Below the pieces are notes generated by a model. The model saw nothing but the letters and a program-made list of their open reading frames with translations, was not told the origin of the DNA and ran no database searches. A stretch of 32,000 nucleotides of DNA from Fibrobacter succinogenes subsp. succinogenes S85 (GTDB taxonomy: Bacteria; Fibrobacterota; Fibrobacteria; Fibrobacterales; Fibrobacteraceae): NCBI RefSeq assembly GCF_000146505.1, contig NC_017448.1:1710001-1742000 (forward strand), read 5' to 3'. Below are positions 1 to 31,641 of this stretch, one piece after another (the stretch's first letter is position 1; each line of letters starts with the position of its first letter). A program made the translations under genes and the position numbers.

Positions 1-255
1 CGCATGGTCGAACCTGACCATTTCGCAAAAGTAATCCTGTTCGTAATTTGCAAGGCCCATCGCAGATGCCACTTGACCTGCAGTTTCTTCGCTCAAGTTA
101 GAGCGGCCTTCACTCACGTATTTTAGGAACACCGGCGACGAAAACCCTGCCGCCCGCGTAAAAGTTTGCCAAGTAAACGCGGATTTTGCCTTTTTCTCGG
201 CGTAATAATCCGCGATGTACTGGTGATAGTTCGTGTACTCTAGTACATCCTTCAT
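1..255 (-). CDS. TIGR02147/DUF4423-like putative HTH regulator, N-terminal 85 codons only (gene runs off the left edge)
   Basis: Absent from the ORF track because no stop lies in the window. Reverse translation from the ATG at 253-255 gives MKDVLEYTNYHQYIADYYAEKKAKSAFTWQTFTRAAGFSSPVFLKYVSEGRSNLS..., colinear with the three full-length paralogs. TTAGGAGG Shine-Dalgarno lies just upstream. Confidence 0.8.
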   Translation of the reverse strand, partial: MKDVLEYTNYHQYIADYYAEKKAKSAFTWQTFTRAAGFSSPVFLKYVSEGRSNLSEETAGQVASAMGLANYEQDYFCEMVRFDHA

Positions 256-272
256 CGTATCCTCCTAACACA

Positions 273-306
273 AAACAGTGTCTTGACTTGTAAGCCCGCA
301 CCGTTT
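273..306 (-). promoter_or_regulatory. Conserved 34-nt 5' leader stem-loop (copy A) just upstream of the SD of the regulator gene
   Basis: The minus-strand RNA AAACGGUG-CGGGCUUACAAGUCAAGA-CACUGUUU forms an 8-bp outer stem. The paralogous copy at 4791-4824 keeps the stem through compensatory changes. Confidence 0.45.
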
Positions 307-315
307 ACAATTTGA

Positions 316-343
316 AATATATACTAAAATTTCAAAAAGTCAA
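316..343 (-). promoter_or_regulatory. Sigma70-like promoter of the cassette (TTGACT-16 nt-TATATT on the minus strand)
   Basis: The hexamers, read on the minus strand, lie at 338-343 (-35) and 316-321 (-10). The same architecture occurs upstream of all four regulator genes whose upstream region is in the window. Confidence 0.4.
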
Positions 344-485
344 TAGTTTTTGTGATATATAATTAGCGTTTTTAGAGAAATTTAGGCAGTTTTAAAATAT
401 TTAACAAAAAAATTTAGAAATTTTAAGGATATAGACAAAATAATAAAACCAAGAAAATAATGGATTTTTCCGCCTTCGGCGTCAG

Positions 486-515
486 AAAAAAGAAGGCGGG
501 GCGAACCCCGTCTTC
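486..515 (-). terminator. Rho-independent terminator after the lipoprotein gene
   Basis: The minus strand reads GAAGACGGGG-UUCG-CCCCGCCUUC followed by UUUUUU. It lies ~40 nt after the stop at 555-557. Confidence 0.65.
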
Positions 516-554
516 CCTTTCCTCCTAACAAATAATTGTATTACGTTTTAAGAT

Positions 555-2222
555 TTAGTCCTTGATGCAGCGGACATACGATTCAGCCATACTCGGAAAT
601 TCATCTCCATAGCAACTGTATCTATCTACCGCAGAGCATGCCCTATTGTATTCATCAACCACGTAAAAATCATACTCGTCCGAAGTCAGCCCAAATCCAG
701 TCGGATTACCCAAGAAAGTACGATGCAAATAATCCCCGACCAACCCTTTTCTGTCAATATTTTCGTGCTTCTTCGGAACAGTCGGATTATACGATTCCAC
801 CATATAATCCAGCAAAGAATCCATTTCCCCACGCGTGGGAATATGCCAGCCATTGGGGCAAACGCCTTGATACACGCCCTTTTCAACCATAACGGAATCC
901 ATATGTTGACGATACTTCAATGTATCAAGACTCCGTTCAAGGCCTTCTTCACACTCATTCCAGAAATCAGACTCTTCACACTCCGGGCAATCTTTCAAAT
1001 GGCGCTGAAAGCACATTTTTCTTGTTTCAATTATCGAAGCGTCCAAGCTAAAAGCGCCACCGACATCGTACATGCCACAACAGCTCGCTCGATGTTCGCA
1101 AGGCACCTGCAATTCAGAAGCGTTATAGTCCAAGCGTTCTGCGAGCCAAGTCTGCGTTTTTCCATTTATATCATAGGTCACGGTCTTATACGTTTTTCCA
1201 TCACGTTCATCCGTCATCGTTCCCATGGAATGTTTCATTTCTTTATACGAAAATTCCCATCCCTCTGAACGACATGTCAACATAATGTTTTTGTCGAGAA
1301 TTTCAAAAGCTTTTCCCTCATTTTCTGCAGTGCACAAGCCCGCATCAAGCAAATGAGCTACGAAGGATTTCAAGAAGAGAAGATTTCTACGAGATTTTTC
1401 AATGTCCAACATGGCATACTGATCTAGATCGTCATCATTCTCCGCACGAGTCATGTTCCAACTAAGGTCATTCAGCATATTCAGCGATTCCGTCAAGAAT
1501 CGCGTCTTCAAAAATTCCGTACCGCAAGTAAGATTGCCGCACTTTTCAATTTTTGCAACAACCGTATCCTCTGTCGTATATTTCATAAAATCTTCGATAA
1601 ACGCCATGTAGATTCTATAGTTAGGATCTTGCACATTTTCAGCTTCGGGTTTATCAAACAAATTAGCATAAAAACCAAACGATTCAAGAACTTCCTTGCT
1701 TGCCTGTTTTTTGGCTTCAGCAAAACTCATTCCAAATTTCATCAGATAACGAGCTCGAATACTTTCAAAGTACGTCTTCTTGTCAACGGCAAAGGCATTC
1801 GCATCCCGAACATCAACAATATTATAGCGTCGATTGGAATAATCCGTCGAAAGCATAACATAAGGACTTTTCAAAGATAAACTATCAATAACAATGCTAT
1901 CGATATCAGGAGTTACCAAATACAAAGGTTTACTACTAAAATTCCAACTATAAGGAACTCTTCTCGTGGTATCAAAAGTTACAGAATCAAGTTCATATAT
2001 CTGAACAGACCCATATGGAGCAGTATAAACGTTCATTCCCCTATAAACTACATTCGAGCCGTCAAACACAACACTCGAACTTGAAGCAGGAGCTTCATCG
2101 CTACTCGATGACAAACCATACGGCTCGCCCGAAGGAGCATTCGGCACCAAGCTATCGACTTCAGAACAAGCGATTAACGCAAGCGGCGTCAAAAACGCCA
2201 TGAGCCACTTTTTAATATTCAT
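555..2222 (-). CDS. Lipoprotein with C-terminal FISUMP (TIGR02145-like) domain; second lipoprotein of cassette 1
   Basis: Lipobox LALIAC|SE. FISUMP hallmarks: DERDGKTYKTVTYDINGKTQTWLAERL, GVCPNGWHIPTRGEMDSL, C-terminal YVRCIKD. The N-terminal region (YELDSVTFD ... SLKSPYVML) and a GMSFAEAKK ... VLESFGFY helix block are shared with the paralogs. Confidence 0.85.
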   Translation of the reverse strand: MNIKKWLMAFLTPLALIACSEVDSLVPNAPSGEPYGLSSSSDEAPASSSSVVFDGSNVVYRGMNVYTAPYGSVQIYELDSVTFDTTRRVPYSWNFSSKPLYLVTPDIDSIVIDSLSLKSPYVMLSTDYSNRRYNIVDVRDANAFAVDKKTYFESIRARYLMKFGMSFAEAKKQASKEVLESFGFYANLFDKPEAENVQDPNYRIYMAFIEDFMKYTTEDTVVAKIEKCGNLTCGTEFLKTRFLTESLNMLNDLSWNMTRAENDDDLDQYAMLDIEKSRRNLLFLKSFVAHLLDAGLCTAENEGKAFEILDKNIMLTCRSEGWEFSYKEMKHSMGTMTDERDGKTYKTVTYDINGKTQTWLAERLDYNASELQVPCEHRASCCGMYDVGGAFSLDASIIETRKMCFQRHLKDCPECEESDFWNECEEGLERSLDTLKYRQHMDSVMVEKGVYQGVCPNGWHIPTRGEMDSLLDYMVESYNPTVPKKHENIDRKGLVGDYLHRTFLGNPTGFGLTSDEYDFYVVDEYNRACSAVDRYSCYGDEFPSMAESYVRCIKD

Positions 2223-2240
2223 AAAACATTCCTCCTTTAT

Positions 2241-3932
2241 TTAATCCTTAACACAACGAACAGAAACTTCATTTTTACCTAGATATTCTGATTGCGTAGC
2301 ATTAAATTTCGCTTTTCGACTTATATATGCCCATTTAGATCCAATGCTATAAATCGAGATTACCGTAGAATTCACAAGATCAGTATTATTTAAAGCTTTA
2401 AACGTGCTATCGATTTTTACAGCATACTTAGCTCCAATTTTTTTATCAGATTCTCCAAATCCGGCAATCGCCATCATATCCATTCTATAATCCAACATGC
2501 GAACATTTACTTTTCCTTCCACATAAGCACGCAACTTTTTCCATTCATTTGCATCTGGAAGATGCCATCCATCAGGACATATACCTTGATAGTTTTTCCC
2601 AGTCGCCTTGACGGAATCCGTTATAGCCCAAAGTCTCTCGTAATCAAGATTGCTTTTTTCCGCCTGCAGGCGATCGCAATTCGTATAAGAATCTTCTTCA
2701 ATACAATCCTCATAAGGAATCAACGCAATGGAATCCGGCAAAGCCATTGCATCATTCCAGAAATAAATACCATCTGCAGATTTATACTTCAAATTTTCTG
2801 CAAGCCATGTTTGCGCACCGCCGTCAACATTATATGTAACAGTCTTATATTTCGATCCATCACGGGAATCCGTCATTTCGCCCAAAATAGCACCGACACT
2901 ATCAGGAACCACATAATGGACTAAATAGGACCAAGCTCCATTTTTACAAACAAAATCAATATCTCTGTGTACATCATAGGTGAACGCAGTGCTATAGCCC
3001 TCATTTCCAGCAGAACACGGATCCAATTTCCACAAGCTCGCCATGAAGTTATGCATAAGGTCATGCAGACGAACCTTCACATCGTCGCCAATCCATTCGG
3101 CATCAAACCAGCTAACAATTCCTTCAACAAAGTCGTTCTTCACATTAGGTATTGCTTTAAAAGAGCCAACTTTAGCAAACGCATTTGCCAAACCAGCCTC
3201 AGTTTTAGGTGTAAAGCCGACCACGTAACTCGCGAATAAGATTTCATCTTGATTTTCTTGAGACTCAGCCTTATCAAAACGATAAGGAACACCATAGATC
3301 CCCAAAGCACTGAGTATTTCACTTTCGGATTTTCGTTTAGCATCCTCAAAACTCATTCCTTGGCCAACCAAGCCCAGCAGTCGTTTAGTCTCTATAGTCG
3401 TCGCCACATTGATACCGACATTCTTAACCTTTCGCAAATCAACTATCAAACTATACACCATATAATGAGTAGTTCCATTAACGACACAGCCGTCTACCCA
3501 TTTACGCTCTTGATCCGTCAAGTCATACCATTCCCCGCATTCGTAAGGAGACAATTCAAGCATAACATAAGGACTCTTCAGCGAGACACTGTCAAAACTG
3601 AACACGCCCGAAGTATCTTTAGATTGGCTATAGTAAACCAAACCCGTTGCGCTAAAATTGACAGAATCCAGTTCTGACATTCTTACAACAGAGCCCTCAG
3701 GAACTGAACTAACAAATTTGACCTTAGTAGTGTCATTTTCATCAATTTTTGTTTCAAACAGCCTTGCTTGCGCCACTACTTTAATATTTTCAAGAGACGC
3801 CTGTTCTTCCGTGTAGCCGCCTTCATGCGCAAGCGGGGAATTACCAACATCCTCGGAACACGCCGCAAACATAAAAGCGAGCAACGTCACCATTTTGCAG
3901 GCAAATTGCCCGCCCATTTTTGAGTAATTCAT
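2241..3932 (-). CDS. Lipoprotein with C-terminal FISUMP domain; first lipoprotein of cassette 1
   Basis: Lipobox MFAAC|SE. Also DSRDGSKYKTVTYNVDGGAQTWLAENL, GICPDGWHLPDANEWKKL and the ending VRCVKD. GGAGG lies before the ATG at 3932, 8 nt after the regulator stop. Confidence 0.85.
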   Translation of the reverse strand: MNYSKMGGQFACKMVTLLAFMFAACSEDVGNSPLAHEGGYTEEQASLENIKVVAQARLFETKIDENDTTKVKFVSSVPEGSVVRMSELDSVNFSATGLVYYSQSKDTSGVFSFDSVSLKSPYVMLELSPYECGEWYDLTDQERKWVDGCVVNGTTHYMVYSLIVDLRKVKNVGINVATTIETKRLLGLVGQGMSFEDAKRKSESEILSALGIYGVPYRFDKAESQENQDEILFASYVVGFTPKTEAGLANAFAKVGSFKAIPNVKNDFVEGIVSWFDAEWIGDDVKVRLHDLMHNFMASLWKLDPCSAGNEGYSTAFTYDVHRDIDFVCKNGAWSYLVHYVVPDSVGAILGEMTDSRDGSKYKTVTYNVDGGAQTWLAENLKYKSADGIYFWNDAMALPDSIALIPYEDCIEEDSYTNCDRLQAEKSNLDYERLWAITDSVKATGKNYQGICPDGWHLPDANEWKKLRAYVEGKVNVRMLDYRMDMMAIAGFGESDKKIGAKYAVKIDSTFKALNNTDLVNSTVISIYSIGSKWAYISRKAKFNATQSEYLGKNEVSVRCVKD

Positions 3933-3940
3933 GATTCCTC

Positions 3941-4774
3941 CTAACCTTTTTTATTAAAACTTTTATTCGTCATCGGAAAGAACTGCACATTCAAACGGTA
4001 GACTTCGTCCATACCGCTATCTTGCGTGGCAATCGTAATAATCCTCTTGCGAAATTCAGCTATTTCCTGAACAATTTTTTCGTAGGCATCGCGCGTGATA
4101 CCGAGCGTAAGACCCGAAAAATGGCGTTCATCTTGAGCAACGCCTTCAATGGCTTCCAAAGCAAACTCGCCCATCTGGCGATGCATTTCGCGAACCGCAA
4201 TCGGAGTCACCTCCATCGGCCCTGTCGTCACGCCTCTTTCGGTCTGCTTGTAATTTCCGTCTTTATCTTTTTTGAGTAAATCCGCCTTGACGAGAAAATT
4301 CAGCGACTCGGTCACTTCGGCGGCTGTAATTTCTGGGCGGCAGGCACGGGCAAGCGCAAGCGGCTTTGCACCGGGCATCGCTGGGGCAAGTTCACGGAGT
4401 ACCGGATTTTTCCAGCTTTCAAAATAGCGGAATGAATCGCCTTCAATGATTTTCGCCTTGACAGAATCTGCAATTGAAAGCATTTTGCCAAAAGCATCTT
4501 TTTTCTCGGCATCCGTTTTTGCGTTGTCAAACTTGACCATTTCGCAAAAGTAATCTTGTTCGTAGCCAACAAGATGCATGGCCTGCGCCACGCGCAGTGC
4601 AGCCGCATCGCTCAAGTTGAGTTTACCTTCGCTAGCATACTTCAGATGAACTGGCGAAGAGAATCCCGCCGCACGCGTGAACTCCTGCCAAGTGAATGCG
4701 GATTTGGCCTTTTTGTCGGCGTAGTAATCCGCAATATACTGACGATAACTAGTGTATTCTAGTATATCTTTCAT
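3941..4774 (-). CDS. TIGR02147/DUF4423-like putative HTH transcriptional regulator (cassette 1)
   Basis: 277 aa with no signal peptide. The N-terminus has an XRE-like HTH pattern (FTWQEFTRAAGFSSPVHLKYASEGKLNLS). A central winged-helix-like segment follows (ITAAEVTESLNFLVKADLLKKDKDGNYKQT). By eye it is about three-quarters identical to the paralogs at 6849 and 11024. Confidence 0.85.
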   Translation of the reverse strand: MKDILEYTSYRQYIADYYADKKAKSAFTWQEFTRAAGFSSPVHLKYASEGKLNLSDAAALRVAQAMHLVGYEQDYFCEMVKFDNAKTDAEKKDAFGKMLSIADSVKAKIIEGDSFRYFESWKNPVLRELAPAMPGAKPLALARACRPEITAAEVTESLNFLVKADLLKKDKDGNYKQTERGVTTGPMEVTPIAVREMHRQMGEFALEAIEGVAQDERHFSGLTLGITRDAYEKIVQEIAEFRKRIITIATQDSGMDEVYRLNVQFFPMTNKSFNKKG

Positions 4775-4790
4775 TGTTTCCTCCTAACGT

Positions 4791-4824
4791 AAACAACATC
4801 TTGACTCATAAGTCCGTGCCGTTT
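4791..4824 (-). promoter_or_regulatory. Conserved 34-nt 5' leader stem-loop (copy B)
   Basis: Minus-strand RNA is AAACGGCA-CGGACUUAUGAGUCAAGA-UGUUGUUU. The outer 8-bp stem is kept relative to copy A by two double substitutions (U-A to C-G, G-C to A-U). Confidence 0.45.
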
Positions 4825-4833
4825 ACAGAATCA

Positions 4834-4862
4834 AATATAAATCACAAATTTTAAAAAGTCAA
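4834..4862 (-). promoter_or_regulatory. Sigma70-like promoter (TTGACT-17 nt-TATATT on the minus strand)
   Basis: -35 at 4857-4862 and -10 at 4834-4839, read on the minus strand. Paralogous to the copies at 316-343, 7730-7758 and 11947-11975. Confidence 0.45.
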
Positions 4863-5016
4863 TAGTTTCATCATAAATTTTTAGCGTTTTTAGTAAAATT
4901 TAAGCAATTTTTATTATTCATTAAAAATTTTAGTCATTTTTCACAATATAAACAAAATAATCATCATTTCTACAAAACGAGATACCGATCCCGGCACAAG
5001 GCTGGGATTACAACGC

Positions 5017-5048
5017 AAAAAAAAGAAGGCGGGCCGAAGCCCGCCTTC
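5017..5048 (-). terminator. Rho-independent terminator after the lipoprotein gene
   Basis: Minus strand reads GAAGGCGGGC-UUCG-GCCCGCCUUC, a perfect 10-bp stem, followed by eight U. Confidence 0.75.
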
Positions 5049-5090
5049 CCTTTCCTCCTAACAAATAATTTTTATGCGGTTTTAAATGGT

Positions 5091-6839
5091 TTAGTTTTTG
5101 ATGCAGCGAACATTCACTTCATTAAAAGGAGGTATATCATACGCGCCTTCACTATATTGATATTCAGTCGGCATTCTAAATCCAAAGCCAGATCCGCTAC
5201 TAAACCCACCAAAGAAAGCAACTTTAGATAAATGCAGATCCGTCACCGCAAAATGATTATAAAAATCTCCCATCCTTCCAGTCACATATATACGGCCATT
5301 ATCATCCATAGCAAGCCCACTTGAACTTTTCAAACCAAAACCTGTTGCAGTTTCATCGTAAAGGACAGGCACCGCTTTAACATAATCGACCCCATACAGA
5401 CTTCCCAAATTCTGCAACAAGGTTTTCCAGTCATTCGTAGTCGGTATACGCCAACCATCTGGACAAATTCCTTGATGCATATTCAAAGTTGACTGAAGCT
5501 CAGCATTGGCATAATCATAATCCCAGCTTGTTCTTCCCGCATAACAGGCATCATAATCAAACTCATTTGTCGAATCCAAGAGGCCCGCAAATGCTTTTCG
5601 ACATTCCAAGTTCAAATAAACCGTATCCCCTCGCAAACTAACCCAATATATATTCAAATCTTCCATCGAAACATCCATTGCATTCCACCACAAATATCGA
5701 CCGTATATTCTGCAAAGGCTTGCATTACTACGTGTTTGACATAAAGCGTGAGCGGAATCTGAATAAATAAGGTCTTCCGCCATCCAAGTCTGCGTGACAC
5801 CGCCCCAATTATACGTCACCGTCTTATAAGATTTACCATCTCGATTATCCACCAACGAACCTTTTGTATATTCCACCGTTTTAAAGCCCATAGTCCACCT
5901 TCCAGAGCGACACACAACACTAACCGAATTCTCGCTATTAAGAATTCCAATTTCACCTACATCATTTTCACGAGCTTCGGTACACCGTCCTAATCCATCA
6001 ATCTTAGCCAAGAAGCCAATTCTATAATCTATCATTTTCTTTAAATTCAGAAGATAACGCTCCAATTGAACATTCCCCATGAATTCTTCAGGCGAAGCAT
6101 AATGGTAAGCAGCATCAAACCAATCAAGTCCCTTGCGAGCATCTTTTTCCGTGTATTGAATTAGCTTATTTACATAAGACAATTCAGAATTTTCATCAAA
6201 CATTTTTTCAAACGAGCCTAAGTTTTTGTATATTCCAAAGTTTTCAAGAATTTTGCGTTCAGCCATTTGATTCGCTTCAGCAAAGGTTTTTCCTTCGGCT
6301 ATATATTCTCGCAAAAGTGGAACTTTGGCGGTCGTCAACGAATTCACCCTTATTTTTTCTTTTTTTCGCAAATCCACAATAGCACGAAGCTCTTTAGACG
6401 GGATCGTGTACGCAAGGCATTCAACACCCAAAGTTATCTGCGGAAGCAACAATCCACTTACATACTTGCACGTATCAAGGGAAGGCACAATTTCTTCAAT
6501 CAACACATAAGGGCTATTCAAATCAAGGCTATCAAACGCAAAATGTCCTTCATCGTCAATAACCGAATCTACAACAGAACGACCCGTTGTATCAAAAGTC
6601 AAGGAATCAAGTTCATAAACAGTGATAGAACTCCCCTTAGGTGCAAGCATCGAATTTCCACGCGACGAAGAATCGACCATACTCAATTTCGGGAATACAT
6701 CACCCATTTGCCCCATTAAGGCATAGACACCTGTTTCCTCTTCGGCACCGCCCATTATACCAAGCGGTTTATTTTCGTCGGAACAGGCCACCAAAAGGAG
6801 CGCCATCAGCGCAGCCAAAGTAATTTTTGAGTAGTTCAT
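5091..6839 (-). CDS. Lipoprotein with C-terminal FISUMP domain (cassette 2)
   Basis: Lipobox LLVAC|SD. Also DNRDGKSYKTVTYNWGGVTQTWMAEDL, GICPDGWRIPTTNDWKTL and the ending VRCIKN. Confidence 0.85.
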   Translation of the reverse strand: MNYSKITLAALMALLLVACSDENKPLGIMGGAEEETGVYALMGQMGDVFPKLSMVDSSSRGNSMLAPKGSSITVYELDSLTFDTTGRSVVDSVIDDEGHFAFDSLDLNSPYVLIEEIVPSLDTCKYVSGLLLPQITLGVECLAYTIPSKELRAIVDLRKKEKIRVNSLTTAKVPLLREYIAEGKTFAEANQMAERKILENFGIYKNLGSFEKMFDENSELSYVNKLIQYTEKDARKGLDWFDAAYHYASPEEFMGNVQLERYLLNLKKMIDYRIGFLAKIDGLGRCTEARENDVGEIGILNSENSVSVVCRSGRWTMGFKTVEYTKGSLVDNRDGKSYKTVTYNWGGVTQTWMAEDLIYSDSAHALCQTRSNASLCRIYGRYLWWNAMDVSMEDLNIYWVSLRGDTVYLNLECRKAFAGLLDSTNEFDYDACYAGRTSWDYDYANAELQSTLNMHQGICPDGWRIPTTNDWKTLLQNLGSLYGVDYVKAVPVLYDETATGFGLKSSSGLAMDDNGRIYVTGRMGDFYNHFAVTDLHLSKVAFFGGFSSGSGFGFRMPTEYQYSEGAYDIPPFNEVNVRCIKN

Positions 6840-6848
6840 AGTTTCCTC

Positions 6849-7679
6849 CTAGCCTTTATTAACACTCTTTTTTGTCATCGGAAAGAACTGCACGTTCAGA
6901 CGGTAGACTTCTTCCGTTGCAGTTTCACTTGTCGCAATCGCAATAATGTCCTTGCGGAATTCGGCAATCCTCTGCACAATTTTTTCGTACGCTTCGCGAG
7001 TGATTCCAAGCGTAAGGCCCGAGAAATGACGTTCGTCTTGCGGGACGTTTTCAATGGCGTCAAGAGCAAACTCGCCCATTTGACGGTGCAGTCCGCGAAC
7101 TGCGAGCGGCGTGAATTCCATCGGGCCGGTGGTCACGACTTTATCGGTTTGGGCGTAGTTCCCGTCCTTGTCTTTTTTCAGCAAATCCGCTTTGACCAAG
7201 AAACTCAGCGCATCAGAGACTTCAGCAGCAGAAACTTCGGGGCGGCAAGCATGCGCCATCGCCAAAGGCTTTGCGCCAGGCATGGCAGGAGCAAGTTCAC
7301 GGAGCACCGGATTTTTCCAGTCCTCAAAAAAGCGGAAGGATTCGCCATCGACAATTTTTGCCTTGCGGGATTCCGCGATCGAGACCATTTTGCTGAACGC
7401 CGCGCGTTTTTCGTCATCGTTCTTTGCGTGGTCAAACTTGACCATTTCTACAAAGAACTCGCGTTCGTAATCGGCGAGATGCATCGCCTGCGCGGTGCGA
7501 ACCGCAGCTTCGGCGCTCAAGTTAAAGCGACCTTCGCTCACGTATTTAAGGTAGACCGGCGAAGAGAAACCCGCCGTTTTAGCAAACTCCTGCCAAGAAA
7601 ACGCAGTCTTCGCCTTTCGATCGGCGTAGTAATCTGCGATATACTGGCGGTAGTCCGTATATTCAAGTATATCTTTCAT
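6849..7679 (-). CDS. TIGR02147/DUF4423-like putative HTH regulator (cassette 2)
   Basis: The ORF track starts at 7715. The paralog alignment and a GGAGG-N5-ATG context place the start at MKDILEYTDY (ATG at 7677-7679). Confidence 0.85.
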   Translation of the reverse strand: MKDILEYTDYRQYIADYYADRKAKTAFSWQEFAKTAGFSSPVYLKYVSEGRFNLSAEAAVRTAQAMHLADYEREFFVEMVKFDHAKNDDEKRAAFSKMVSIAESRKAKIVDGESFRFFEDWKNPVLRELAPAMPGAKPLAMAHACRPEVSAAEVSDALSFLVKADLLKKDKDGNYAQTDKVVTTGPMEFTPLAVRGLHRQMGEFALDAIENVPQDERHFSGLTLGITREAYEKIVQRIAEFRKDIIAIATSETATEEVYRLNVQFFPMTKKSVNKG

Positions 7680-7729
7680 TTTTCCTCCTAACAAACAATC
7701 TCTTTGTCGGATCATTTGTTGTTAATCTA

Positions 7730-7758
7730 AATATAGCTCATAAATTTCAAAAAATCAA
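7730..7758 (-). promoter_or_regulatory. Sigma70-like promoter (TTGATT-17 nt-TATATT on the minus strand)
   Basis: -35 at 7753-7758 and -10 at 7730-7735, read on the minus strand. The position is equivalent to that in the other cassettes. Confidence 0.4.
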
Positions 7759-7762
7759 TAGT

Positions 7763-7858
7763 TTTACAATATATTTTATTGATTTTTACAATAATTTTAA
7801 AGATTTTAAAAGTAATTAGAAAAATTATAGAATTTCACAATATGAAGAATATTGTAGA
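7763..7858 (-). promoter_or_regulatory. Upstream ACAATA-type box pair (possible operator or activator sites) of cassette 2
   Basis: Proximal box ACAATA-N5-TATTGA at 7766-7782, 7 nt beyond the -35. Distal palindrome ACAATAT-gaaga-ATATTGT at 7837-7855. Confidence 0.35.
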
Positions 7859-7880
7859 AATAACCTACTATATTTACTTC

Positions 7881-8906
7881 ATGGACTTTTTCACGAAAAT
7901 CAATATTCCGGCTGCCAATTGGCAGATTGACTACAATTCTAGGCTCGCATTTTTCGGATCGTGCTTTGCAGACAATATTTCGGCACAGTTTGCATCGCGG
8001 AAATTCAACGTTTTGGCAAATCCGTTCGGAACGGTTTACAACCCGCTCTCAGCGGCAATGCAGATTAAAGCCATTGCAAACGGGAAAATTTTTGGAGAAG
8101 CGGACGTTTTTCAGGATACGCGATTAGGCGTTTCGGAAAACGGCAATGAGATTCGCGGCCCCTGGCACTGCTGGGACGCGCACAGCTCACTTTCCGCCGC
8201 AACTCGTGAAGAGTGTATCGCAAAATTGAACGAAACGACCGCTAATGCACGGGAGTTTTTGCAGAAAGCCGATACCGTATTTATCACGCTCGGGACTGCG
8301 TTCGTGTACTTTTTGAGAGAAAACGGGGTTGCCGTTTCGAATTGCCACAGGCAAAATCCAAACCTGTTTATTCGCAAGATGATTTCCGTGGACCATGCGG
8401 CAGAAGCGCTGAAAAGCATCGTGCATGATTTGCTGAAGATTAAACGCGACGGGATCGGCGAGAATCGCGAACTCCACATCGTCTTTACAGTTTCACCGTT
8501 ACGGCATTTGAGCGACGGCGCTCACGAAAACACACTTTCAAAAGCGACATTGCAACTCGCAATAGAAAAGGTCACAAGAGAAATCGTCACAGAGCCTGCA
8601 ACGACCATCAGTTATTTTCCGAGTTACGAGATCGTGATGGATGAACTGCGCGACTACCGTTTTTACGATGACGATATGATTCATTTGTCAAAGACGGCAG
8701 AAGGCTACATCTTTGAGCGCATGACAGAAACGTATTGCAGCGAAAAAACGCGCGAAGATATCCGCAAAGTGGAAAAGTTCATGAAAATGGCAAACCACAG
8801 AATTCAAGACGAGAGTTCGACAGCCACCGCGACATTCCAGCAAAAATTACAAGCAGAAGCACAAAAGCTCGAAAGCCAAATCGCGGGACTTGAGTTAAAC
8901 GTGTAG
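7881..8906 (+). CDS. GSCFA-domain protein
   Basis: Contains the literal family motif (LAFFGSCFADNISAQF). The ORF-track start at 7779 lies in AT-rich promoter DNA, so I place the start at the ATG at 7881 (MDFFTKINIP). Confidence 0.7.
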   Translation: MDFFTKINIPAANWQIDYNSRLAFFGSCFADNISAQFASRKFNVLANPFGTVYNPLSAAMQIKAIANGKIFGEADVFQDTRLGVSENGNEIRGPWHCWDAHSSLSAATREECIAKLNETTANAREFLQKADTVFITLGTAFVYFLRENGVAVSNCHRQNPNLFIRKMISVDHAAEALKSIVHDLLKIKRDGIGENRELHIVFTVSPLRHLSDGAHENTLSKATLQLAIEKVTREIVTEPATTISYFPSYEIVMDELRDYRFYDDDMIHLSKTAEGYIFERMTETYCSEKTREDIRKVEKFMKMANHRIQDESSTATATFQQKLQAEAQKLESQIAGLELNV

Positions 8907-8912
8907 ATGGAG

Positions 8913-8945
8913 ATTCCCCGTCGGAGCGGGGAATGACAATGTAAG
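8913..8945 (+). repeat. Extragenic hairpin plus TGACAATGTA tail (copy 1 of 3)
   Basis: ATTCCCCG-tcggag-CGGGGAAT stem-loop at 8913-8934. It runs directly into TGACAATGTAAG at 8934-8945. Confidence 0.5.
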
Positions 8946-8991
8946 ATTCTACTGAATCCTTCGGCGTTTCACGCCTCAGGATGACGAGATG

Positions 8992-9019
8992 AAAAGAAGG
9001 CGGGGCGAGCCCCGTCTTC
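8992..9019 (-). terminator. Terminator hairpin after the lipoprotein gene (weaker U tract)
   Basis: Minus strand reads GAAGACGGGG-CUCG-CCCCGCCUUC followed by UUUUC. Same module as at 486-515 and 5017-5048. Confidence 0.5.
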
Positions 9020-9059
9020 CCTTTCCTCCTAACAGTATTTCCGTTAAGTTTTCATTGGT

Positions 9060-11009
9060 TTAGTTTTTGATGCAGCGGACAGCGAACAAGTCAGAGTTAA
9101 AAAAGTTGAATCGGACTTTCTTATGGGATGTAGCAGCCAAAAGAGGAGTTTGCTCGCTCTTGCCAACTCGGACAAAACTACCATCTTGATCCAGAACCGA
9201 GGCAAATTCATAGTAACCATATGTTATCACGTTCGGCCTAGGAACTCCCGAACCATAGGATTCCACAACTTTTCCTTCAATATTCCCAAAGCCACTCGCA
9301 TCAGCGTCCTTTAACAAGACTCCTTGACTTGCCATGTTTTCAATCAAGAGATCCCAATCAGCTTTATTGGGGATTCGCCATCCATCTGGGCACACGCCCT
9401 GATAAGTTGCAAGTTCCGATTCAGGGATAACACTCGAACTATCAAAATAGATTCCATATCCATATTTATGGTTGCAATAATCCCACAACGTTTCAGCAGT
9501 ATCTAATTCATAACATTCACCCGCTTCAGTTCTAATAAAGCAATATTCAATCCTATTACTTTCATCTTCATACGCACGCAAATCAAACTCAACCGTCAAG
9601 CACCGATCTTCAACAGACTCCGTTTTTAGTACCATGTCCTTACCCAACACACGGTCGTAAACATCGGCATTCAACTTAAGAAAAGATTCATCAATATTCA
9701 TAAACGCAGTCCACTTGTAAAAACGGCCCAGTTTTTCACATGACGGATCGTATTCCCAGCAACTCGTTTTTCCAAGCAAATTCTTTTTCAAGGTACTATC
9801 AACACTTGAAGACACCGTATCCGCAAAATTCAGATTTTCGGCCATCCACGTTTGCGTGACATCACCCCAGTTATACGTAACGATCTTATATGTTTTTCCA
9901 TCGCGATTGTCCACCATCGTTCCACTTGTGTATGAAGCCTTTTTGGAATCAACCACCCATTTTTTTGACCGGCAGGTGACTGCGAACTTGGGCAATTCAT
10001 AAAATTCACGAATCGCAATAGTATCTACATCGTTTTCACGCAATTCCGTACATTGTCCCAATCCAACCATATGAGCCAAATAGCCAACCTCATATTCGAA
10101 CAACTTTATTGTATTCAAATAATATTGCTGCATTTCTTCTGACGCAGAGAATCGCGACAAAGGCGCAAAGTAAACTTCTTTATAGATCCAGATAAAATCA
10201 TAACCCAATAATTCATTTTTTATTTCATCTCCACCTCCACGTCCCAAATCGTCAAGTTCAGAAATTTTCAAGTACAATGCCATAACATAATTCAATTCTT
10301 CATTTTCCAGGTCTTCAAAGCTTCCAAGATCTTCGTAAATGCCTATGTTTTCAAGAATGTCCTGTTCAGCCTTTTTGCTGGCCTCCGCAAACGACATTCC
10401 TTCGGCAAAGTACGCCCGCACTAGCGGGACCTTTTTATTGGACAACGTATTGACGCTTATCTTCTTATACTTTTTCAAGTCAACAATAGCGCTCCTCAAA
10501 ACCGGATATTTTTGCGATCCATATACACTCATTGCTCCTGTTGAATCAAATTTCGTAGGAAGATCGGTCGTAAAGCCCCACGCACCAGCACGCTCAAGAC
10601 AATTATTGGTGATGCAGGAATCAAGCGTTTCAATCAATACATACGGGCTATTCAAGGTAAGGTTTTCGAACGAAAAACGACCATCATCATTATCAATCGT
10701 ATCGACAAACGTACGACCTGTGGCCGCAAGAGATGACGAATCCAGTTCGTAAACAGTCACAACGGTTCCTTTCGCAGCATACAGGGAACCTTCATCATTT
10801 TGGATATTTGCCGAGCTATAGCCTTCCTTCGCAAGCAACTTGGGATATACATCGCCCACGCGGCCCGACAAGGCGTAAACGCCAGTTTCTTCAACAGTGC
10901 CACCGGCAACACCGTTTCCTGAATTCGTTTCCGAGCATGCCGCGAACATAAAGGCGAGCAGCATCGCCATTTTGCAGACAAACTGTCCGCTAATTTTTGA
11001 ATAATTCAT
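9060..11009 (-). CDS. Lipoprotein with C-terminal FISUMP domain carrying a large insertion (cassette 3)
   Basis: Lipobox MFAAC|SE. Also DNRDGKTYKIVTYNWGDVTQTWMAENL, GVCPDGWRIPNKADWDLL and the ending VRCIKN. About 285 aa lie between the start of the domain and the C-terminus, longer than in the paralogs. Confidence 0.85.
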   Translation of the reverse strand: MNYSKISGQFVCKMAMLLAFMFAACSETNSGNGVAGGTVEETGVYALSGRVGDVYPKLLAKEGYSSANIQNDEGSLYAAKGTVVTVYELDSSSLAATGRTFVDTIDNDDGRFSFENLTLNSPYVLIETLDSCITNNCLERAGAWGFTTDLPTKFDSTGAMSVYGSQKYPVLRSAIVDLKKYKKISVNTLSNKKVPLVRAYFAEGMSFAEASKKAEQDILENIGIYEDLGSFEDLENEELNYVMALYLKISELDDLGRGGGDEIKNELLGYDFIWIYKEVYFAPLSRFSASEEMQQYYLNTIKLFEYEVGYLAHMVGLGQCTELRENDVDTIAIREFYELPKFAVTCRSKKWVVDSKKASYTSGTMVDNRDGKTYKIVTYNWGDVTQTWMAENLNFADTVSSSVDSTLKKNLLGKTSCWEYDPSCEKLGRFYKWTAFMNIDESFLKLNADVYDRVLGKDMVLKTESVEDRCLTVEFDLRAYEDESNRIEYCFIRTEAGECYELDTAETLWDYCNHKYGYGIYFDSSSVIPESELATYQGVCPDGWRIPNKADWDLLIENMASQGVLLKDADASGFGNIEGKVVESYGSGVPRPNVITYGYYEFASVLDQDGSFVRVGKSEQTPLLAATSHKKVRFNFFNSDLFAVRCIKN

Positions 11010-11023
11010 GGTTTCCTCCTCGT

Positions 11024-11854
11024 TTATTTTTTCAAATCTTGTTTCTGTGTCAGCGGGAAAAGTTGCATATTCAGACGATAGACTTCGTCTGTGGCCGCAT
11101 TCTTCCGAGCAATGGCAATGACTCTTTTACGGCAATCAGCAATTTCTTGCACGATTTCGTCGTAGCCATCTTTGGTGATGCCGAATGTGACACCGGAGAA
11201 ATTTCGTTTATCCTGAGCCACACCCTCGATTGCTTCAAGCGCAAGCTCTCCCATTTGGCGGTGCATTGTACGGACGGCCAACGGAGTCACTTCCATGCGG
11301 CCCGTTGTCAAGGATTTATCAGTTTGTACGTAATTGCCTTCGTCATTTTTTTCAAGGAATCCGCCCTTGACGAGGAAGTTCAGCACATCGCTGACTTCGG
11401 CGGCGGTAATTTCTGGGCGGCAGGCATGGGCAAGCGCAAGCGGCTTTGCACCAGGCATCGATGGAGCGAGTTCACGAATGACCGGATTTTTCCAACTTTC
11501 AAAAAAGCGGAACGAATCGCCTTCCAAGATTTTCGCCTTGTGCGCTTCTGCAATGGCTAGCATTTTGTTAAAGGCCGCCTTCTTTTCATCATCCGTTTTC
11601 GCATGGTCGAACTTGACCATTTCGGTGAAATATTCGCGTTCGTAATCGACCAAGCGCATGGCATCTGCCACGCGAGCGGTCGCCGAATCACTCAAGTTAA
11701 AGCGGCCTTCGCTCACATATTTCAGATAAACACGTGAAGAGAATCCAGCTTCGTTTGCGAACTCTTGCCAAGTAAACGCGGATTTCGCCTTTTTATCGGC
11801 GTAATAATCCGCAATATACTGGCGATAGCTCGTATATTCTAGTATTTCTTTCAT
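11024..11854 (-). CDS. TIGR02147/DUF4423-like putative HTH regulator (cassette 3)
   Basis: Starts MKEILEYTSYRQYIADYYADKKAKSAFTWQEF and is colinear with the paralogs over its full length. AAGGAGG lies before the ATG. Confidence 0.85.
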   Translation of the reverse strand: MKEILEYTSYRQYIADYYADKKAKSAFTWQEFANEAGFSSRVYLKYVSEGRFNLSDSATARVADAMRLVDYEREYFTEMVKFDHAKTDDEKKAAFNKMLAIAEAHKAKILEGDSFRFFESWKNPVIRELAPSMPGAKPLALAHACRPEITAAEVSDVLNFLVKGGFLEKNDEGNYVQTDKSLTTGRMEVTPLAVRTMHRQMGELALEAIEGVAQDKRNFSGVTFGITKDGYDEIVQEIADCRKRVIAIARKNAATDEVYRLNMQLFPLTQKQDLKK

Positions 11855-11896
11855 TTTTCCTCCTTACGACAATCCCTAAATTTTTTCAGGGTCCGT

Positions 11897-11935
11897 AAAA
11901 AAACAAACGAATTGCGGTTCTTTTGTCCGTTTCGT
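11897..11935 (-). terminator. Terminator-like hairpin plus U-run inside the 5' leader of cassette 3 (possible attenuator)
   Basis: The minus strand reads AACGAAACGG-acaaaagaa-CCGcaaUUCGUU, then UGUUUUUUU. It sits between the predicted -10 (11947-11952) and the SD. Confidence 0.3.
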
Positions 11936-11946
11936 TCCTGAAATCA

Positions 11947-11975
11947 AATATACAACATAAATTTTAAAATTGCAA
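11947..11975 (-). promoter_or_regulatory. Sigma70-like promoter (TTGCAA-17 nt-TATATT on the minus strand)
   Basis: -35 at 11970-11975 and -10 at 11947-11952, read on the minus strand. Confidence 0.4.
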
Positions 11976-11979
11976 TAGA

Positions 11980-12076
11980 TTTACAATACAAAATATTGAT
12001 TTTTATAAAATTTTTGGAGATTTTAGAGAATATTATAAAATCTTGAGTATATTTCACAATACAAATGTATTGTAGA
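11980..12076 (-). promoter_or_regulatory. Upstream ACAATA-type box pair of cassette 3
   Basis: Proximal box ACAATA-N5-TATTGA at 11983-11999, 7 nt beyond the -35. Distal palindrome ACAATAC-aaat-GTATTGT at 12056-12073. Confidence 0.35.
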
Positions 12077-12102
12077 TTTTTTATTTCAATAGGGAATGGC
12101 GA

Positions 12103-12131
12103 CCCCGCAACGCGTGAGGGGTGACAATGTA
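12103..12131 (+). repeat. Extragenic hairpin plus TGACAATGTA tail (copy 2 of 3)
   Basis: CCCC ... GGGG stem (12103-12121) around an ACGCGT core, followed by TGACAATGTA at 12122-12131. It lies ~40 nt beyond the helicase stop. Confidence 0.4.
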
Positions 12132-12167
12132 AAGGAAATGCGCGGGTATTGCGCCCGCAGCAAGATT

Positions 12168-13628
12168 TTACTGCTGTTGGGATTGCGATTCGCGCATGCG
12201 GCGGCGAGCACGGGAACCCGGGCGGTTGCGGCGATGACGGCGACCGCCGTTCTGCGGATTCGGAGTATTATCAGCCGGAGCATTTTGTACGGTCACATTC
12301 TGGGCAGGATTGCGAGAAATCTGCTCGGAATTGTGCGGTGCATTGTTAGAATTCTGCTTTCCGTGATTTCCTTTGCGATTGCCGCGATTATTGCGGGTTT
12401 CTGCAGCGCGGGCCTGAGCTTCTTCGCGCGACATGCGACCGCGAGAATTGCGCATCATGCTTTCGGCAGTTTCTTTTTGCGGAGGTGGGAGATTCTCGTA
12501 AATGCTCTGATCGCCTTCCGGGATTTTCACACGAGTAAGCTTTTCAATCCCGCGCAAATCGGATTCTTCGTCCGGAGAGCAGAACGAAATGGCAACGCCT
12601 TCCTTCCCTGCACGGGCCGTACGGCCAATGCGATGCACAAACGTTTCATGTTCATTCGGCAAATCGTAATTGAACACATGGCTCACATCATCCACATCAA
12701 TGCCACGTGCTGCAATGTCCGTTGCCACAAGCACTCGAATTTGTTCACACTTGAAATTTCCGAGAGCTTCTTGACGACGGTTCTGGCTCTTGTTCCCGTG
12801 AATAGCTGCACACTTGATGCCAGCCTTTTCAAGCACGCGCACAATTTTATCTGCACCATGCTTTGTACGACAGAAGACAAGCACCTTTTTCATTTCAGGG
12901 TGTTCTGCCAAAAGCTCCTTGAGGAGAGCCCCCTTGCGGCGCTTGTCAATGCGATAAAGCTCTTGACGGATGCGTTCAATCGGAGTGCTCTGCGGAGCAA
13001 CTTCAACACGCACCGGATTCGGGCGCAAAATCGTCGCGGCAAGTTTCGAAATTTCTTCCGGCATCGTAGCGCTAAAGAACAAATTCTGTCGGTCTTGCGG
13101 GAGCATCGCTACAACCTTGCGGATATCATGGATAAAACCCATGTCCAGCATGCGGTCCGCTTCGTCGAGCACAAAGAATTCAAGTTTCTTGAGCGATATT
13201 GCCTTCTGCCCAATCAAATCCAACAAACGTCCTGGGGTAGCGACAAGCACATCGACACCGCGAATAAGCTTTTGCTTTTGCGGATTGTCATTCACGCCAC
13301 CAAAAATGCACGCCGTCGAAATTGCCGTGAACTGTGCATATTCCCTGAAGCAGTCTTCCACCTGGATGGCAAGCTCACGCGTCGGCAACAAAATCAAAGC
13401 ACGGCAAGTTTTGGGAGAACGGAACTTCCCGGAATCCAAAAGTCGCTGCAAAATCGGGAGCGCAAAAGCAGCCGTCTTGCCGGTTCCCGTCTGAGCAATT
13501 CCCAAGAGATCCTTGCCTTCAAGAAGACTCGGGATGGAACGTTCTTGAATCGGGGTCGGGGTTTCGTATCCAACAGCGCGGACAGCCCGCTGCAATGGAT
13601 TTGCCAAAGGAAGTTCTTCAAATTTCAT
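12168..13628 (-). CDS. DEAD-box ATP-dependent RNA helicase (RhlE-like) with a long basic C-terminal tail
   Basis: Motifs AQTGTGKT, PTRELA, VLDEADRMLDMGF, SAT and HRIGRTARAG. The R/N/Q-rich tail ends RRHRRNRPGSRARRRMRESQSQQQ. The ORF-track start at 13637 is a TTG, and the ATG at 13626-13628 (MKFEEL) is preferred. Confidence 0.9.
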   Translation of the reverse strand: MKFEELPLANPLQRAVRAVGYETPTPIQERSIPSLLEGKDLLGIAQTGTGKTAAFALPILQRLLDSGKFRSPKTCRALILLPTRELAIQVEDCFREYAQFTAISTACIFGGVNDNPQKQKLIRGVDVLVATPGRLLDLIGQKAISLKKLEFFVLDEADRMLDMGFIHDIRKVVAMLPQDRQNLFFSATMPEEISKLAATILRPNPVRVEVAPQSTPIERIRQELYRIDKRRKGALLKELLAEHPEMKKVLVFCRTKHGADKIVRVLEKAGIKCAAIHGNKSQNRRQEALGNFKCEQIRVLVATDIAARGIDVDDVSHVFNYDLPNEHETFVHRIGRTARAGKEGVAISFCSPDEESDLRGIEKLTRVKIPEGDQSIYENLPPPQKETAESMMRNSRGRMSREEAQARAAETRNNRGNRKGNHGKQNSNNAPHNSEQISRNPAQNVTVQNAPADNTPNPQNGGRRHRRNRPGSRARRRMRESQSQQQ

Positions 13629-13643
13629 ACTGCACAAAGATAG

Positions 13644-17347: not shown

Positions 17348-17797
17348 TTACGCTTGTTTCCAATGCTTTAGTTGCGAGAGGTGTTTGTCGAAAAAGGCGC
17401 GGCGTTCTGCGTCGGGAGTATTGTCGGGATTGGGCATGTGCGAAAGCAGAAAATCGAGGAGGACCGACTTGTCGTTGTAAACAAACTTACCGTCGGTATA
17501 GCACCACTTGCAATAATCTTCGTTGAATTCGCCGCTGGGTTCACGGCTGATCATGGAATCTTCGCTGAGAGGCATTCCGCAGCATTGGCAGAAGAGTTGG
17601 CGCGGAGCGCCGAGCAACGTGTTTATGGACACGTTGAATTCACGGGAGATGACTTTGAGCATTTCGGTATTCGGCTGGGTTTCGCCAGTTTCCCAGCGGC
17701 TCACAGCTTGGCGCGTTACATGCAAGCGTTCGGCCATCTGGTCCTGGGTCAGGTTTTGATTCGAGCGCAACTTAAGCAAAACTTCTCGTACTTCCAT
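17348..17797 (-). CDS. XRE-family HTH protein fused to a putative zinc-ribbon domain
   Basis: HTH_3 pattern LTQDQMAERLHVTRQAVSRWETGETQP, followed by CQCCGMPL ... YCKWCY. I place the start at the ATG at 17797 (MEVREV) with an AAGGAGA SD. The longer ORF-track start lies in AT-rich DNA. Confidence 0.8.
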   Translation of the reverse strand: MEVREVLLKLRSNQNLTQDQMAERLHVTRQAVSRWETGETQPNTEMLKVISREFNVSINTLLGAPRQLFCQCCGMPLSEDSMISREPSGEFNEDYCKWCYTDGKFVYNDKSVLLDFLLSHMPNPDNTPDAERRAFFDKHLSQLKHWKQA

Positions 17798-17953
17798 AAT
17801 ATTCTCCTTTTGCAAATAAAATATTTTTAATTGTTTATCATTTCTTTTGACGAGTATAATATAGAACCAAGCTATAGCAAAAGCAAGCAACAGGCTGTTG
17901 CTTTTTTACGAGAGACGCGCAACCGAGAAGCGCGCGGCCCCCGGTCCACAAAC

Positions 17954-27044: not shown

Positions 27045-27132
27045 CGAAAGCCAAAGATAGAATTTTCCTCCGATTCTCTGTTCTCATAAACAATAGCGTA
27101 AACACAATTCTCAAAAAAAAATAATTACGACC

Positions 27133-28990: not shown

Positions 28991-29009
28991 GGAAGGGCAA
29001 ATTCTTTAA

Positions 29010-31639: not shown

Positions 31640-31641
31640 TA

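Follow-up and report, generated by a model that had tools for sequence, protein, structure and literature searches.

The window analysed here is a stretch of 32,000 nucleotides (nt) of Fibrobacter succinogenes S85 (CP001792.1, ~1263282-1295281), and its left part (1-12.1 kb) carries an array of cassettes in which a gene of the TIGR02147/DUF4423 family (REG) is followed by one or two genes for lipoproteins with a C-terminal FISUMP domain (LIPO). Eight minus-strand genes of this module, four REG and four LIPO, are present in the list of open reading frames (ORFs), with the coordinates and strand given by an earlier description made from the letters of the DNA (hereafter the original prediction). 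That description had counted five regulator copies; the S85 array has exactly four, the partial copy at the left edge of the window being the fourth. Nor is the array the uninterrupted head-to-tail series that had been described, as a plus-strand gene of the GSCFA family (Fisuc_1030) splits it between cassettes 3 and 2. The two lipoproteins assigned to cassette 1 were confirmed. Apart from the module genes, two ORFs of at least 250 amino acids (aa) occur in this region, one being the GSCFA gene and the other a spurious ORF, antisense, at its right edge. Over 12.2 kb the window differs from CP001792.1 by one nucleotide, at ~6348, which turns Arg into Ser in LIPO2. The tag Fisuc_1029 was confirmed by coordinates in a published table and the remaining locus tags were assigned from gene order. 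For REG2, a longer ORF running to 7715 was considered and rejected, the true start being the ATG at 7679. The positions of the features are collected in Table 1.

Profile hidden Markov models (HMMs) have been employed for the assignment of both families, with cutoffs of 50 bits for TIGR02147, 30 bits for PF14394 and 41.65 bits for TIGR02145 and a gathering score of 33.9 for PF09603. TIGR02147 gave 305-316 bits on the three full REGs (E 6e-91 to 2e-94) and 95 bits on the 85-aa fragment of REG0 (E 5e-27), while PF14394 (DUF4423) gave 107-108 bits on the three full REGs (E about 1e-30). The regulator family named in the original prediction is therefore borne out by scores above the curated cutoffs, fragment included. 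As read from the sequence, REG has neither a signal peptide nor a hydrophobic segment. The assignment of the partners as FISUMP lipoproteins holds equally well: all four LIPOs of the window exceed the TIGR02145 cutoff (58.5-84.5 bits), three of the four exceed the gathering score of PF09603, and a lipobox is present. LIPO1b is above the cutoff with TIGR02145 (58.5 bits) and below the gathering score with PF09603 (22.1). The predicted lipidation sites read FAAC, LVAC and LIAC, the last in LIPO1b, each followed by S, a lipobox being taken as [LVI][ASTVI][GAS]C at the end of the signal peptide; a strict pattern found a lipobox-like sequence in 105 of 129 lipoproteins, and more are recognized by eye.

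The LIPOs of the window share one anatomy, in which an N-terminal region of ~300 aa without domain assignment precedes the C-terminal FISUMP domain, and cysteines are conserved. Pfam gave nothing significant on the beta-rich N-terminal segment (best match a SpaA prealbumin-like fold, E 0.21), the lipoprotein profile had no match among the PDB sequences, and CarboxypepD_reg was seen as faint or weak matches in relatives. The mature proteins begin with CSE[TDV] or CSDE, a pattern similar to the lipoprotein export signal (LES) of Bacteroidota, in which a polar residue and then acidic ones occupy +2 to +5 after the cysteine; exposure at the surface appears plausible. FISUMP proteins have long been suspected in adhesion to plant fibre. 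No paralogous family of F. succinogenes is larger, S85 having 54 copies and relatives as many as 119, and cellulose-binding or cohesin-like roles have been proposed for them (PMC4704652). The domain has also been grouped with the DUF1566-type C-type-lectin-like target domains of diversity-generating retroelements (PMC5758913). Neither a reverse transcriptase nor such a retroelement was found among the ORFs of at least 250 aa in 1-12.1 kb or the other scanned ORFs of the window, the template and variable repeats not having been specifically searched.

A scan of species-representative genomes, scored with HMMs built from the window proteins, returned 54 loci, all from Fibrobacter/Fibrobacteraceae. 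A LIPO starts less than 60 nt downstream of the regulator for 118 of the 126 evaluable Fibrobacter REG genes, and the spacing is an identical 9 nt in 88 of these 118. A divergent subfamily, ~45-55% identical to the window REGs, shows the same order (DUF4423, then Fib_succ_major) in independently called, Pfam-annotated contigs. Evidently, the fixed regulator-lipoprotein pairing suggested by the original prediction is general in Fibrobacter. The median pairwise identity is 0.72 for REGs and 0.28 for LIPOs, and the lipoproteins next to REG pairs more than 95% identical are less than 40% identical in 39% of cases. This means that either the lipoprotein genes have been exchanged or the regulators have been homogenised.

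Two further observations concern the same gene families. A TIGR02147 paralog of 278 aa (1147-1980 in locus L033; also in L039, L040, L042 and L044) is conserved in several Fibrobacter genomes; it is 29% identical to the window REGs, has a divergent helix 3 and is followed by no lipoprotein gene. In two loci from metagenome-assembled genomes (L001, 3846-5671, and L009, 1868-2685), a LIPO or REG is seemingly split into two overlapping ORFs; the cassette may contain a frameshift or pseudogene there, or may have been misassembled.

The junctions and the flanking elements are as regular as the gene order. REG and LIPO are separated by 8, 9 or 14 nt, and LIPO1a and LIPO1b by 18 nt; each junction has a TAGGAGG-type Shine-Dalgarno (SD) sequence, in keeping with the tight coupling first described, and in two cassettes, including REG1/LIPO1a, the SD of the lipoprotein takes in the TAG that stops REG. 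The promoter, leader and terminator said to be shared between the cassettes were all three found in common. The promoter of all four upstream regions is CTATTGAC-N17-TATATT, also as CTATTGA[CT]-N17-TATATT, with an AT-rich stretch upstream. In the related loci the element is present in 102 of 113 REG upstream regions, and ATTGTRRA recurs ~10 and ~80 nt upstream of the -35.

In nearly every leader a stem-loop is found between the -10 and the SD, ending at the SD despite sequence differences. When an explicit 12-pair structure, itself derived from one of the leaders, was imposed on 30 leaders, 78.9% of the cells were paired, compared with 20-44% when the partner columns were slid. Compensatory changes were observed in 10 of the 12 pairs, and no shuffle reached the observed covariation score. 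RNAalifold returned no structure on the leader alignment, probably due to gap placement. After the last LIPO of each cassette, the purine-rich TTAGGAGGAAAGGG is followed by GAAGRCGGG-loop-CCCGCCTTC and a T run; the whole folds as a long hairpin with the U tract base-paired to the purine arm (down to -27.4 kcal/mol, z -4.2). The copies of TTAGGAGGAAAGGG at 488-545, 5018-5075 and 8990-9045 match exactly the context in which the SDs of the genes stand. A lost gene start was considered for them and rejected, since folding shows mostly a purine-rich 5' arm pairing with the U tract.

Table 1. Genes and sequence elements of the REG-LIPO array (positions within the window; UTR, untranslated region)
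Feature	Position	Strand	Remarks
LIPO0 (Fisuc_1023)	left of window		582 aa; partner of REG0, cassette 0; PcrB gene follows
REG0 (Fisuc_1024)	1..255	-	partial, N-terminal 85 codons; fourth TIGR02147/DUF4423 gene, rest left of window
5'-UTR hairpin, cassette 0	274..305	-	ends just 5' of SD
Promoter, cassette 0	316..343	-	sigma-70-like, TTGACT-16-TATATT
Terminator after LIPO1b	488..519	-	intrinsic hairpin and U tract, preceded by purine-rich TTAGGAGGAAAGGG
LIPO1b (Fisuc_1025)	555..2222	-	555 aa; second lipoprotein of cassette 1
LIPO1a (Fisuc_1026)	2241..3932	-	563 aa; C-terminal FISUMP, cassette 1
Post-Cys motif of LIPO1a	3792..3821	-	GGYTEEQASL, aa 38-47
REG1 (Fisuc_1027)	3941..4774	-	277 aa; TIGR02147/DUF4423, cassette 1
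5'-UTR hairpin, cassette 1	4789..4826	-	
Promoter, cassette 1	4834..4862	-	TTGACT-17-TATATT
Terminator after LIPO2	5018..5055	-	-27.4 kcal/mol, z -4.2
LIPO2 (Fisuc_1028)	5091..6839	-	582 aa; FISUMP lipoprotein, cassette 2
Post-Cys motif of LIPO2	6717..6752	-	GGAEEETGVYAL, aa 30-41
REG2 (Fisuc_1029)	6849..7679	-	276 aa; TIGR02147/DUF4423, cassette 2
5'-UTR hairpin, cassette 2	7690..7720	-	
Promoter, cassette 2	7730..7758	-	TTGATT-17-TATATT
GSCFA-family gene (Fisuc_1030)	7842..8906	+	PF08885, E 6e-76; outside module
Terminator after LIPO3	8991..9025	-	
LIPO3 (Fisuc_1031)	9060..11009	-	649 aa; FISUMP lipoprotein, cassette 3
Post-Cys motif of LIPO3	10869..10904	-	GGTVEETGVYAL, aa 36-47
REG3 (Fisuc_1032)	11024..11854	-	276 aa; TIGR02147/DUF4423, cassette 3
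Longer 5'-UTR, cassette 3	11855..11945	-	folds into two hairpins
Promoter, cassette 3	11947..11975	-	TTGCAA-17-TATATT

Shortly after the lipidated cysteine, the lipoproteins carry a motif that connects the Fibrobacter cassettes with other phyla. In Fibrobacter its form is C-S-x(5-12)-G-G-x-x-E-E-[TQP]-G-x-Y-A-L, and a motif of the GGxxEETGxYAL type is present in ~107 of 109 REG-adjacent LIPOs, after inspection of those missed by the regular expression. It is also found in LIPO0, and its GGxxEE core is absent from LIPO1b and most second-position lipoproteins. When 1.84 billion representative proteins were searched with a profile of the regulator family, the outcome was 13,245 clusters (50% identity) at E<=1e-3, with named DUF4423 members in Deltaproteobacteria-like, Rhodothermales-labelled, Chitinivibrionales, Bradymonadia and Bdellovibrionota bins. 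Eight contexts outside Fibrobacter were sampled, and in seven of them a gene with signal peptide and lipobox abuts or overlaps the DUF4423 gene. The mature N-terminus is C-x(2-8)-G-T-E-V-G-N-P or a close variant in six of these seven, and the seventh, from a Chitinivibrionales bin, has the Fibrobacter-type variant GGSSEET.

A metagenome scan with the non-Fibrobacter alignment provided 80 further loci (L071-L150), of which 71 were evaluable. With the pattern G-T-[ED]-x-G-N-P, a motif-bearing lipoprotein gene was found at the DUF4423 stop in 67 of the 71 and slightly downstream in one more; the two genes overlap by ATGA in 33. The commonest forms are GTETGNP (20), GTDVGNP (11) and GTEVGNP (8), mostly 2-4 residues after the cysteine, and among the ~2,700 remaining ORFs of these loci the pattern turned up once, by chance. 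Within the motif, ~0.9-2.0 bits fall to codon positions one and two (six of the seven codons reach at least 1.2) and 0.02-1.0 bits to the third, where no codon but the two-fold-degenerate one for Asn exceeds 0.8. As third positions are free, selection acts on the peptide and not on a DNA site, and a DNA operator within the lipoprotein gene was rejected on this ground. Behind the motif the non-Fibrobacter lipoproteins are heterogeneous, with lengths of 49 to 678 aa and passenger domains that include small Cys-rich, Ig-like/choice-of-anchor-D, Beta_propel (PF09826) and, in the Chitinivibrionales example, leucine-rich repeat (LRR) domains. A Beta_propel lipoprotein was seen in 22 of the 80 metagenome loci, either as the motif-bearing partner or as a second lipoprotein beside the pair.

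The module is defined here as a DUF4423 gene abutted by the gene for a lipobox protein with GT[ED]xGNP or GGxxEE within ~13 aa of the cysteine; the cassettes of LIPO3, LIPO2, LIPO1a and LIPO0 have this arrangement. Taken together, the conserved entity is this pair of DUF4423 protein and motif lipoprotein across phyla, and not the FISUMP domain. Repeated tandem duplication of one ancestral Fibrobacter segment would make the adjacency meaningless, and promoter, leader, terminator and regulator are indeed alike between cassettes, as segmental duplicates would be. However, the pairing persists in other phyla with unrelated passenger domains while the regulators are 35-45% identical, and within Fibrobacter the near-identical regulators stand next to the divergent lipoproteins described above. 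Since the cross-phylum conservation already contradicts it, hardly any credence can be given to duplication as the source of the pairing.

The fold of REG was studied with an AlphaFold2 model based on a 43-sequence alignment, with a predicted local distance difference test (pLDDT) score of 82.9; a single-sequence model of REG1 (pLDDT 41) was unusable. In the model, five N-terminal helices (residues 10-84) are followed by a long linker helix, and the C-terminal part is a helical bundle in which a beta-hairpin forms the wing (residues 151-177), with two long helices after it. Foldseek against the PDB returned 2qww, a MarR-family winged helix, as best match (E 9e-3, probability 1.0, low TM), and nothing below E 1e-3; 18 of the top 19 matches are MarR-family or unnamed transcriptional regulators and the remaining one is a COP9 signalosome chain. 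The REG N-terminal profile matched the XRE-type 3kxa at E 0.012 over its helix-turn-helix (HTH) segment, and precomputed matches to PF13560 (HTH_31) exist on four distant relatives. Pfam gave a CYNS_N match (E 0.005) on the REG0 fragment only. Comparison of the REG N-terminus by hhalign with the HTH_3 protein of the window itself was negative; that protein (17348-17890, minus strand) is a classical XRE HTH_3 fused to Zn_ribbon_2 and is by hhalign unrelated to the REG family. Of the XRE-like HTH and winged helix proposed originally, the winged helix has weak MarR-like matches in Foldseek, and the sequence lends weak support to the XRE-like HTH. The two-domain model is reasonable and weakly supported. 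The sequence of helix 3 is SSPVYLKYVSEGRFNLS in Fibrobacter and, elsewhere, SPNFLKLVIxGxRNL, and the variable positions of REG are concentrated in helices 4-5, the linker and the wing.

From these elements, an autoregulated operon with a DNA-binding DUF4423 protein emerges as the most likely mechanism, one that we hold with about even confidence. Each cassette reads as a self-contained bicistronic (or tricistronic) operon, with a sigma-70-type promoter, a 5'-UTR stem-loop ending at the SD, the DUF4423 gene, the coupled lipoprotein gene and a strong intrinsic terminator in this order. The cytoplasmic protein of 277 aa, with its putative XRE-like HTH, linker helix and MarR-like winged helix, would bind DNA and autoregulate its own operon, and the lipoprotein, translationally coupled to the regulator, would be the output of the operon. 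The lipoprotein consists of the CS[ED] start, the GGxxEETGxYAL motif, the ~300-aa region and a C-terminal C-type-lectin-like FISUMP domain that probably binds ligands. The pair is ancient and cross-phylum, its forms outside Fibrobacterota having GTE[TV]GNP and unrelated passengers, and Fibrobacter has amplified it into tandem arrays in which regulator, promoter, leader and terminator stay alike and the lipoproteins differ in their passenger portion, by divergence or exchange.

Expression of the cassettes was followed in the supplementary counts of a chemostat RNA-seq study of S85 (PMC5442110), in which all module genes are listed for 10 samples: three of the wild type at pH 6.7, three of the wild type at pH 6.1 and four of an acid-adapted strain at pH 5.65. 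All four cassettes are expressed at low to moderate levels in 10 of 10 samples, and per kb their levels stay within a 4-fold range. The read densities of LIPO1a and LIPO1b run in parallel, at a ratio of 0.93, and the REG1:LIPO1a ratio is roughly constant. In the part of the differential-expression table of that study available to us, REG2 is called down (log2 -1.74) and LIPO2 is not among the rows listed with it. Another S85 pair, Fisuc_0658 and Fisuc_0657, decreases together. In the low-pH chemostat comparisons of the supplement, several TIGR02147 genes (Fisuc_0598, 0658, 1029 and 1760) are down-regulated and two TIGR02145 genes (Fisuc_0128 and Fisuc_1759) up-regulated.

These counts bear on the function assigned to the array by the original prediction, namely a locus-specific network that chooses the lipoprotein displayed, conceptually like the UpxY/UpxZ genes. 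In the capsule loci of Bacteroides, UpxY is a NusG-like antiterminator and UpxZ its trans-inhibitor. In such a scheme, or in one of phase-variation style, the regulators would inhibit one another so that each cell displays one or few lipoproteins. Several paralogous regulator-first cassettes with highly divergent surface lipoproteins speak for it, as does the clustering of regulator variability in helices 4-5, linker and wing, and bulk RNA-seq is compatible with heterogeneity between single cells. Nevertheless, the expression of every cassette in every sample argues, for the population as a whole, against one cassette being expressed to the exclusion of the others. There is no visible basis for locus specificity, because the putative HTH helices are near-invariant and the promoters have the same motifs. 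Pfam finds only DUF4423 in the REGs, with no NusG/KOW domain, and no UpxZ-like domain is present either. Inverted repeats in the four upstream regions are short and AT-rich and none brackets the promoter consistently, so that invertible-promoter phase variation finds no footing; the ORF list of 1-12 kb contains no recombinase. In lineages other than Fibrobacter a locus usually has one copy of the module, which thus cannot be a selector there. Mutual selection by the regulators is accordingly very unlikely, and neither the choosing network nor its UpxY/UpxZ-like form could be upheld. The HTH and promoter motifs common to the cassettes make co- or cross-regulation as one regulon likelier than switching one at a time.

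The autoregulated operon, which we prefer, has several observations to contend with. The fold matches of REG are weak (E >= 9e-3, TM 0.2-0.4), Pfam HTH models give no match at E<=0.01 on the window proteins, and what the model offers is a fold of DNA-binding type, from which DNA binding itself is a further step. The putative recognition helix is almost invariant over more than 13,000 clusters at 50% identity, a constancy not usually seen in a transcription-factor family whose members recognise particular operators, and the ATTGTRRA repeats are operator candidates only. The read density of a LIPO is 2.5-3.5 times that of its REG, and the REG:LIPO ratio falls from 0.4-0.85 at pH 6.7 to 0.16-0.33 at pH 5.65, a drop of 2-5 fold seen in three cassettes. 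Multi-mapping as the cause of the low REG counts was rejected, as the paralogs have 71-77% nucleotide identity and no 36-mers in common. The two transcript levels are coupled only loosely, and such uneven reads do not fit a simple single-promoter unit of uniform stability; either an internal start site or faster decay of the 5' mRNA, with a 3' hairpin protecting the rest, would account for the mismatch. Finally, autoregulation by itself gives no reason why the pairing should be strictly 1:1 or the motif conserved.

Because autoregulation leaves this pairing, the constant motif and a co-varying, near-invariant helix unexplained, a relationship between regulator and motif has been kept under consideration. 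The DUF4423 protein would then act through the N-terminal motif of the lipoprotein, and not only or mainly on DNA. In one version it would escort the nascent prelipoprotein, or control its quality, as its cognate factor in the cytoplasm, by analogy with the chaperones of Tat substrates known as redox enzyme maturation proteins (REMPs), which are encoded beside their substrates. In the other it would sense a peptide derived from the lipoprotein N-terminus and feed back on expression, by analogy with RRNPP regulators, whose HTH is of XRE type and which sense peptides cut from lipoprotein precursors. The 1:1 pairing across phyla with its frequent ATGA overlap speaks for such a role, as does the motif, which is the sole conserved part of the lipoprotein and is selected at the protein level. 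The near-invariant helix 3 of the partner changes together with the motif by lineage, SPNFLKLV going with GTExGNP and SSPV[YF] with GGxxEET (Fibrobacter, Chitinivibrionales), and a deviant helix, SSPSHLLMII, accompanies a deviant motif, GGVDVGNL; these lineage changes nevertheless come from very few independent events. Second-position lipoproteins of the cassettes mostly lack the motif, and of the 87 ORFs in the Fibrobacter loci that bear the motif by the strict pattern, 86 directly follow a regulator; as these loci had been collected around regulator genes, this reciprocity test is biased. On the other side, nucleic acid is the usual ligand of HTH and winged-helix folds, the motif is exported as part of the mature protein, REG has no tetratricopeptide repeat (TPR) or other known peptide-binding domain, and a Bdellovibrionota member that stands alone keeps its helix intact. 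Action through the motif is thus possible and, in our judgement, unlikely. With the same reserve, we regard as doubtful, though worth stating, that DUF4423 proteins and the post-Cys motif (GTExGNP / GGxxEETG) form a specific cross-phylum recognition pair that was previously unrecognised.

The consequences of the module are the following. Many FISUMP proteins sit in a stereotyped module with a regulator-like protein, which extends over Fibrobacterota, Bdellovibrionota, Myxococcota-like and other lineages and has its signature at the N-terminus of the lipoprotein. Two orphan families gain a concrete, testable context, with a promoter, candidate ATTGTRRA sites, a 5'-UTR hairpin and a motif as defined elements. 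If the recognition pair were real, a cytoplasmic dual-winged-helix protein would escort, license or sense its cognate lipoprotein via the motif, and arbitrary passengers (FISUMP, LRR, beta-propeller, Ig-like, small Cys-rich) could be plugged into one delivery or control module. There is a minority chance that the module represents something categorically new.

Other features of the window lie outside the module. The upstream region of the GSCFA gene overlaps the promoter region of REG2. The ORF 12096-13643 (plus strand, 515 aa) was rejected as a spurious antisense shadow of an RhlE-like DEAD-box helicase gene at 12168-13637 (minus strand). At 27000-32000, a stretch of low GC (0.38-0.40) with an SNF2/DrmD-like helicase (29390-31639, minus strand) and unannotated ORFs at 27133-28017 and 31642-31959 may be a small defence islet.

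The module can be compared with several known systems. At the head of paralogous surface-structure operons, the regulator genes resemble UpxY/UpxZ; in contrast, the module has neither of their domains and no sign of mutually exclusive expression or invertible promoters. The predicted winged helix of REG is most like that of MarR, by weak matches, and the sequence of its N-terminal five-helix segment has a weakly supported XRE-like pattern. Unlike these regulators, REG joins two domains of DNA-binding type in one chain by a long helix, has no significant match to either Pfam family and keeps its recognition helix near-invariant family-wide. RRNPP regulators and REMPs offer an analogy only, in that a cytoplasmic protein is encoded beside an exported protein whose N-terminal peptide it recognises; REG differs from them in having neither TPR nor REMP fold.

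The LES of Bacteroidota (C-X-K-(D/E)2, SDDDD, SDDFE; PMC5080379) is, like the module motif, a short motif soon after the lipidated cysteine, and the CS[ED] start of the LIPOs resembles it. The module motif differs in lying further in, 1-13 residues after the cysteine, in its Gly, Thr, Asn and Pro signature, in its occurrence in Bdellovibrionota-, Myxococcota- and delta-type lineages, and in being tied to a neighbouring cytoplasmic gene; PMC5080379 makes no mention of a cytoplasmic partner gene for LES. With respect to the two families themselves, the window regulators are full-length TIGR02147/DUF4423 members in agreement of length and domain order, and the LIPOs are like the described FISUMP lipoproteins in C-terminal domain, lipoprotein signal and conserved cysteines. 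Compared with the latter, they add the ~300-aa N-terminal region and GGxxEETGxYAL, and the pairing with the regulator follows the motif. In the searchable literature, DUF4423 appears in a single paper, in a line of a Bdellovibrio proteome table, with no motif-lipoprotein pairing described, and the post-Cys motif strings are absent. Public genome annotations contain both families, and any of them that covers S85 shows the array; what is new against that literature is the module, its cis elements, its conservation across phyla and the post-Cys motif.

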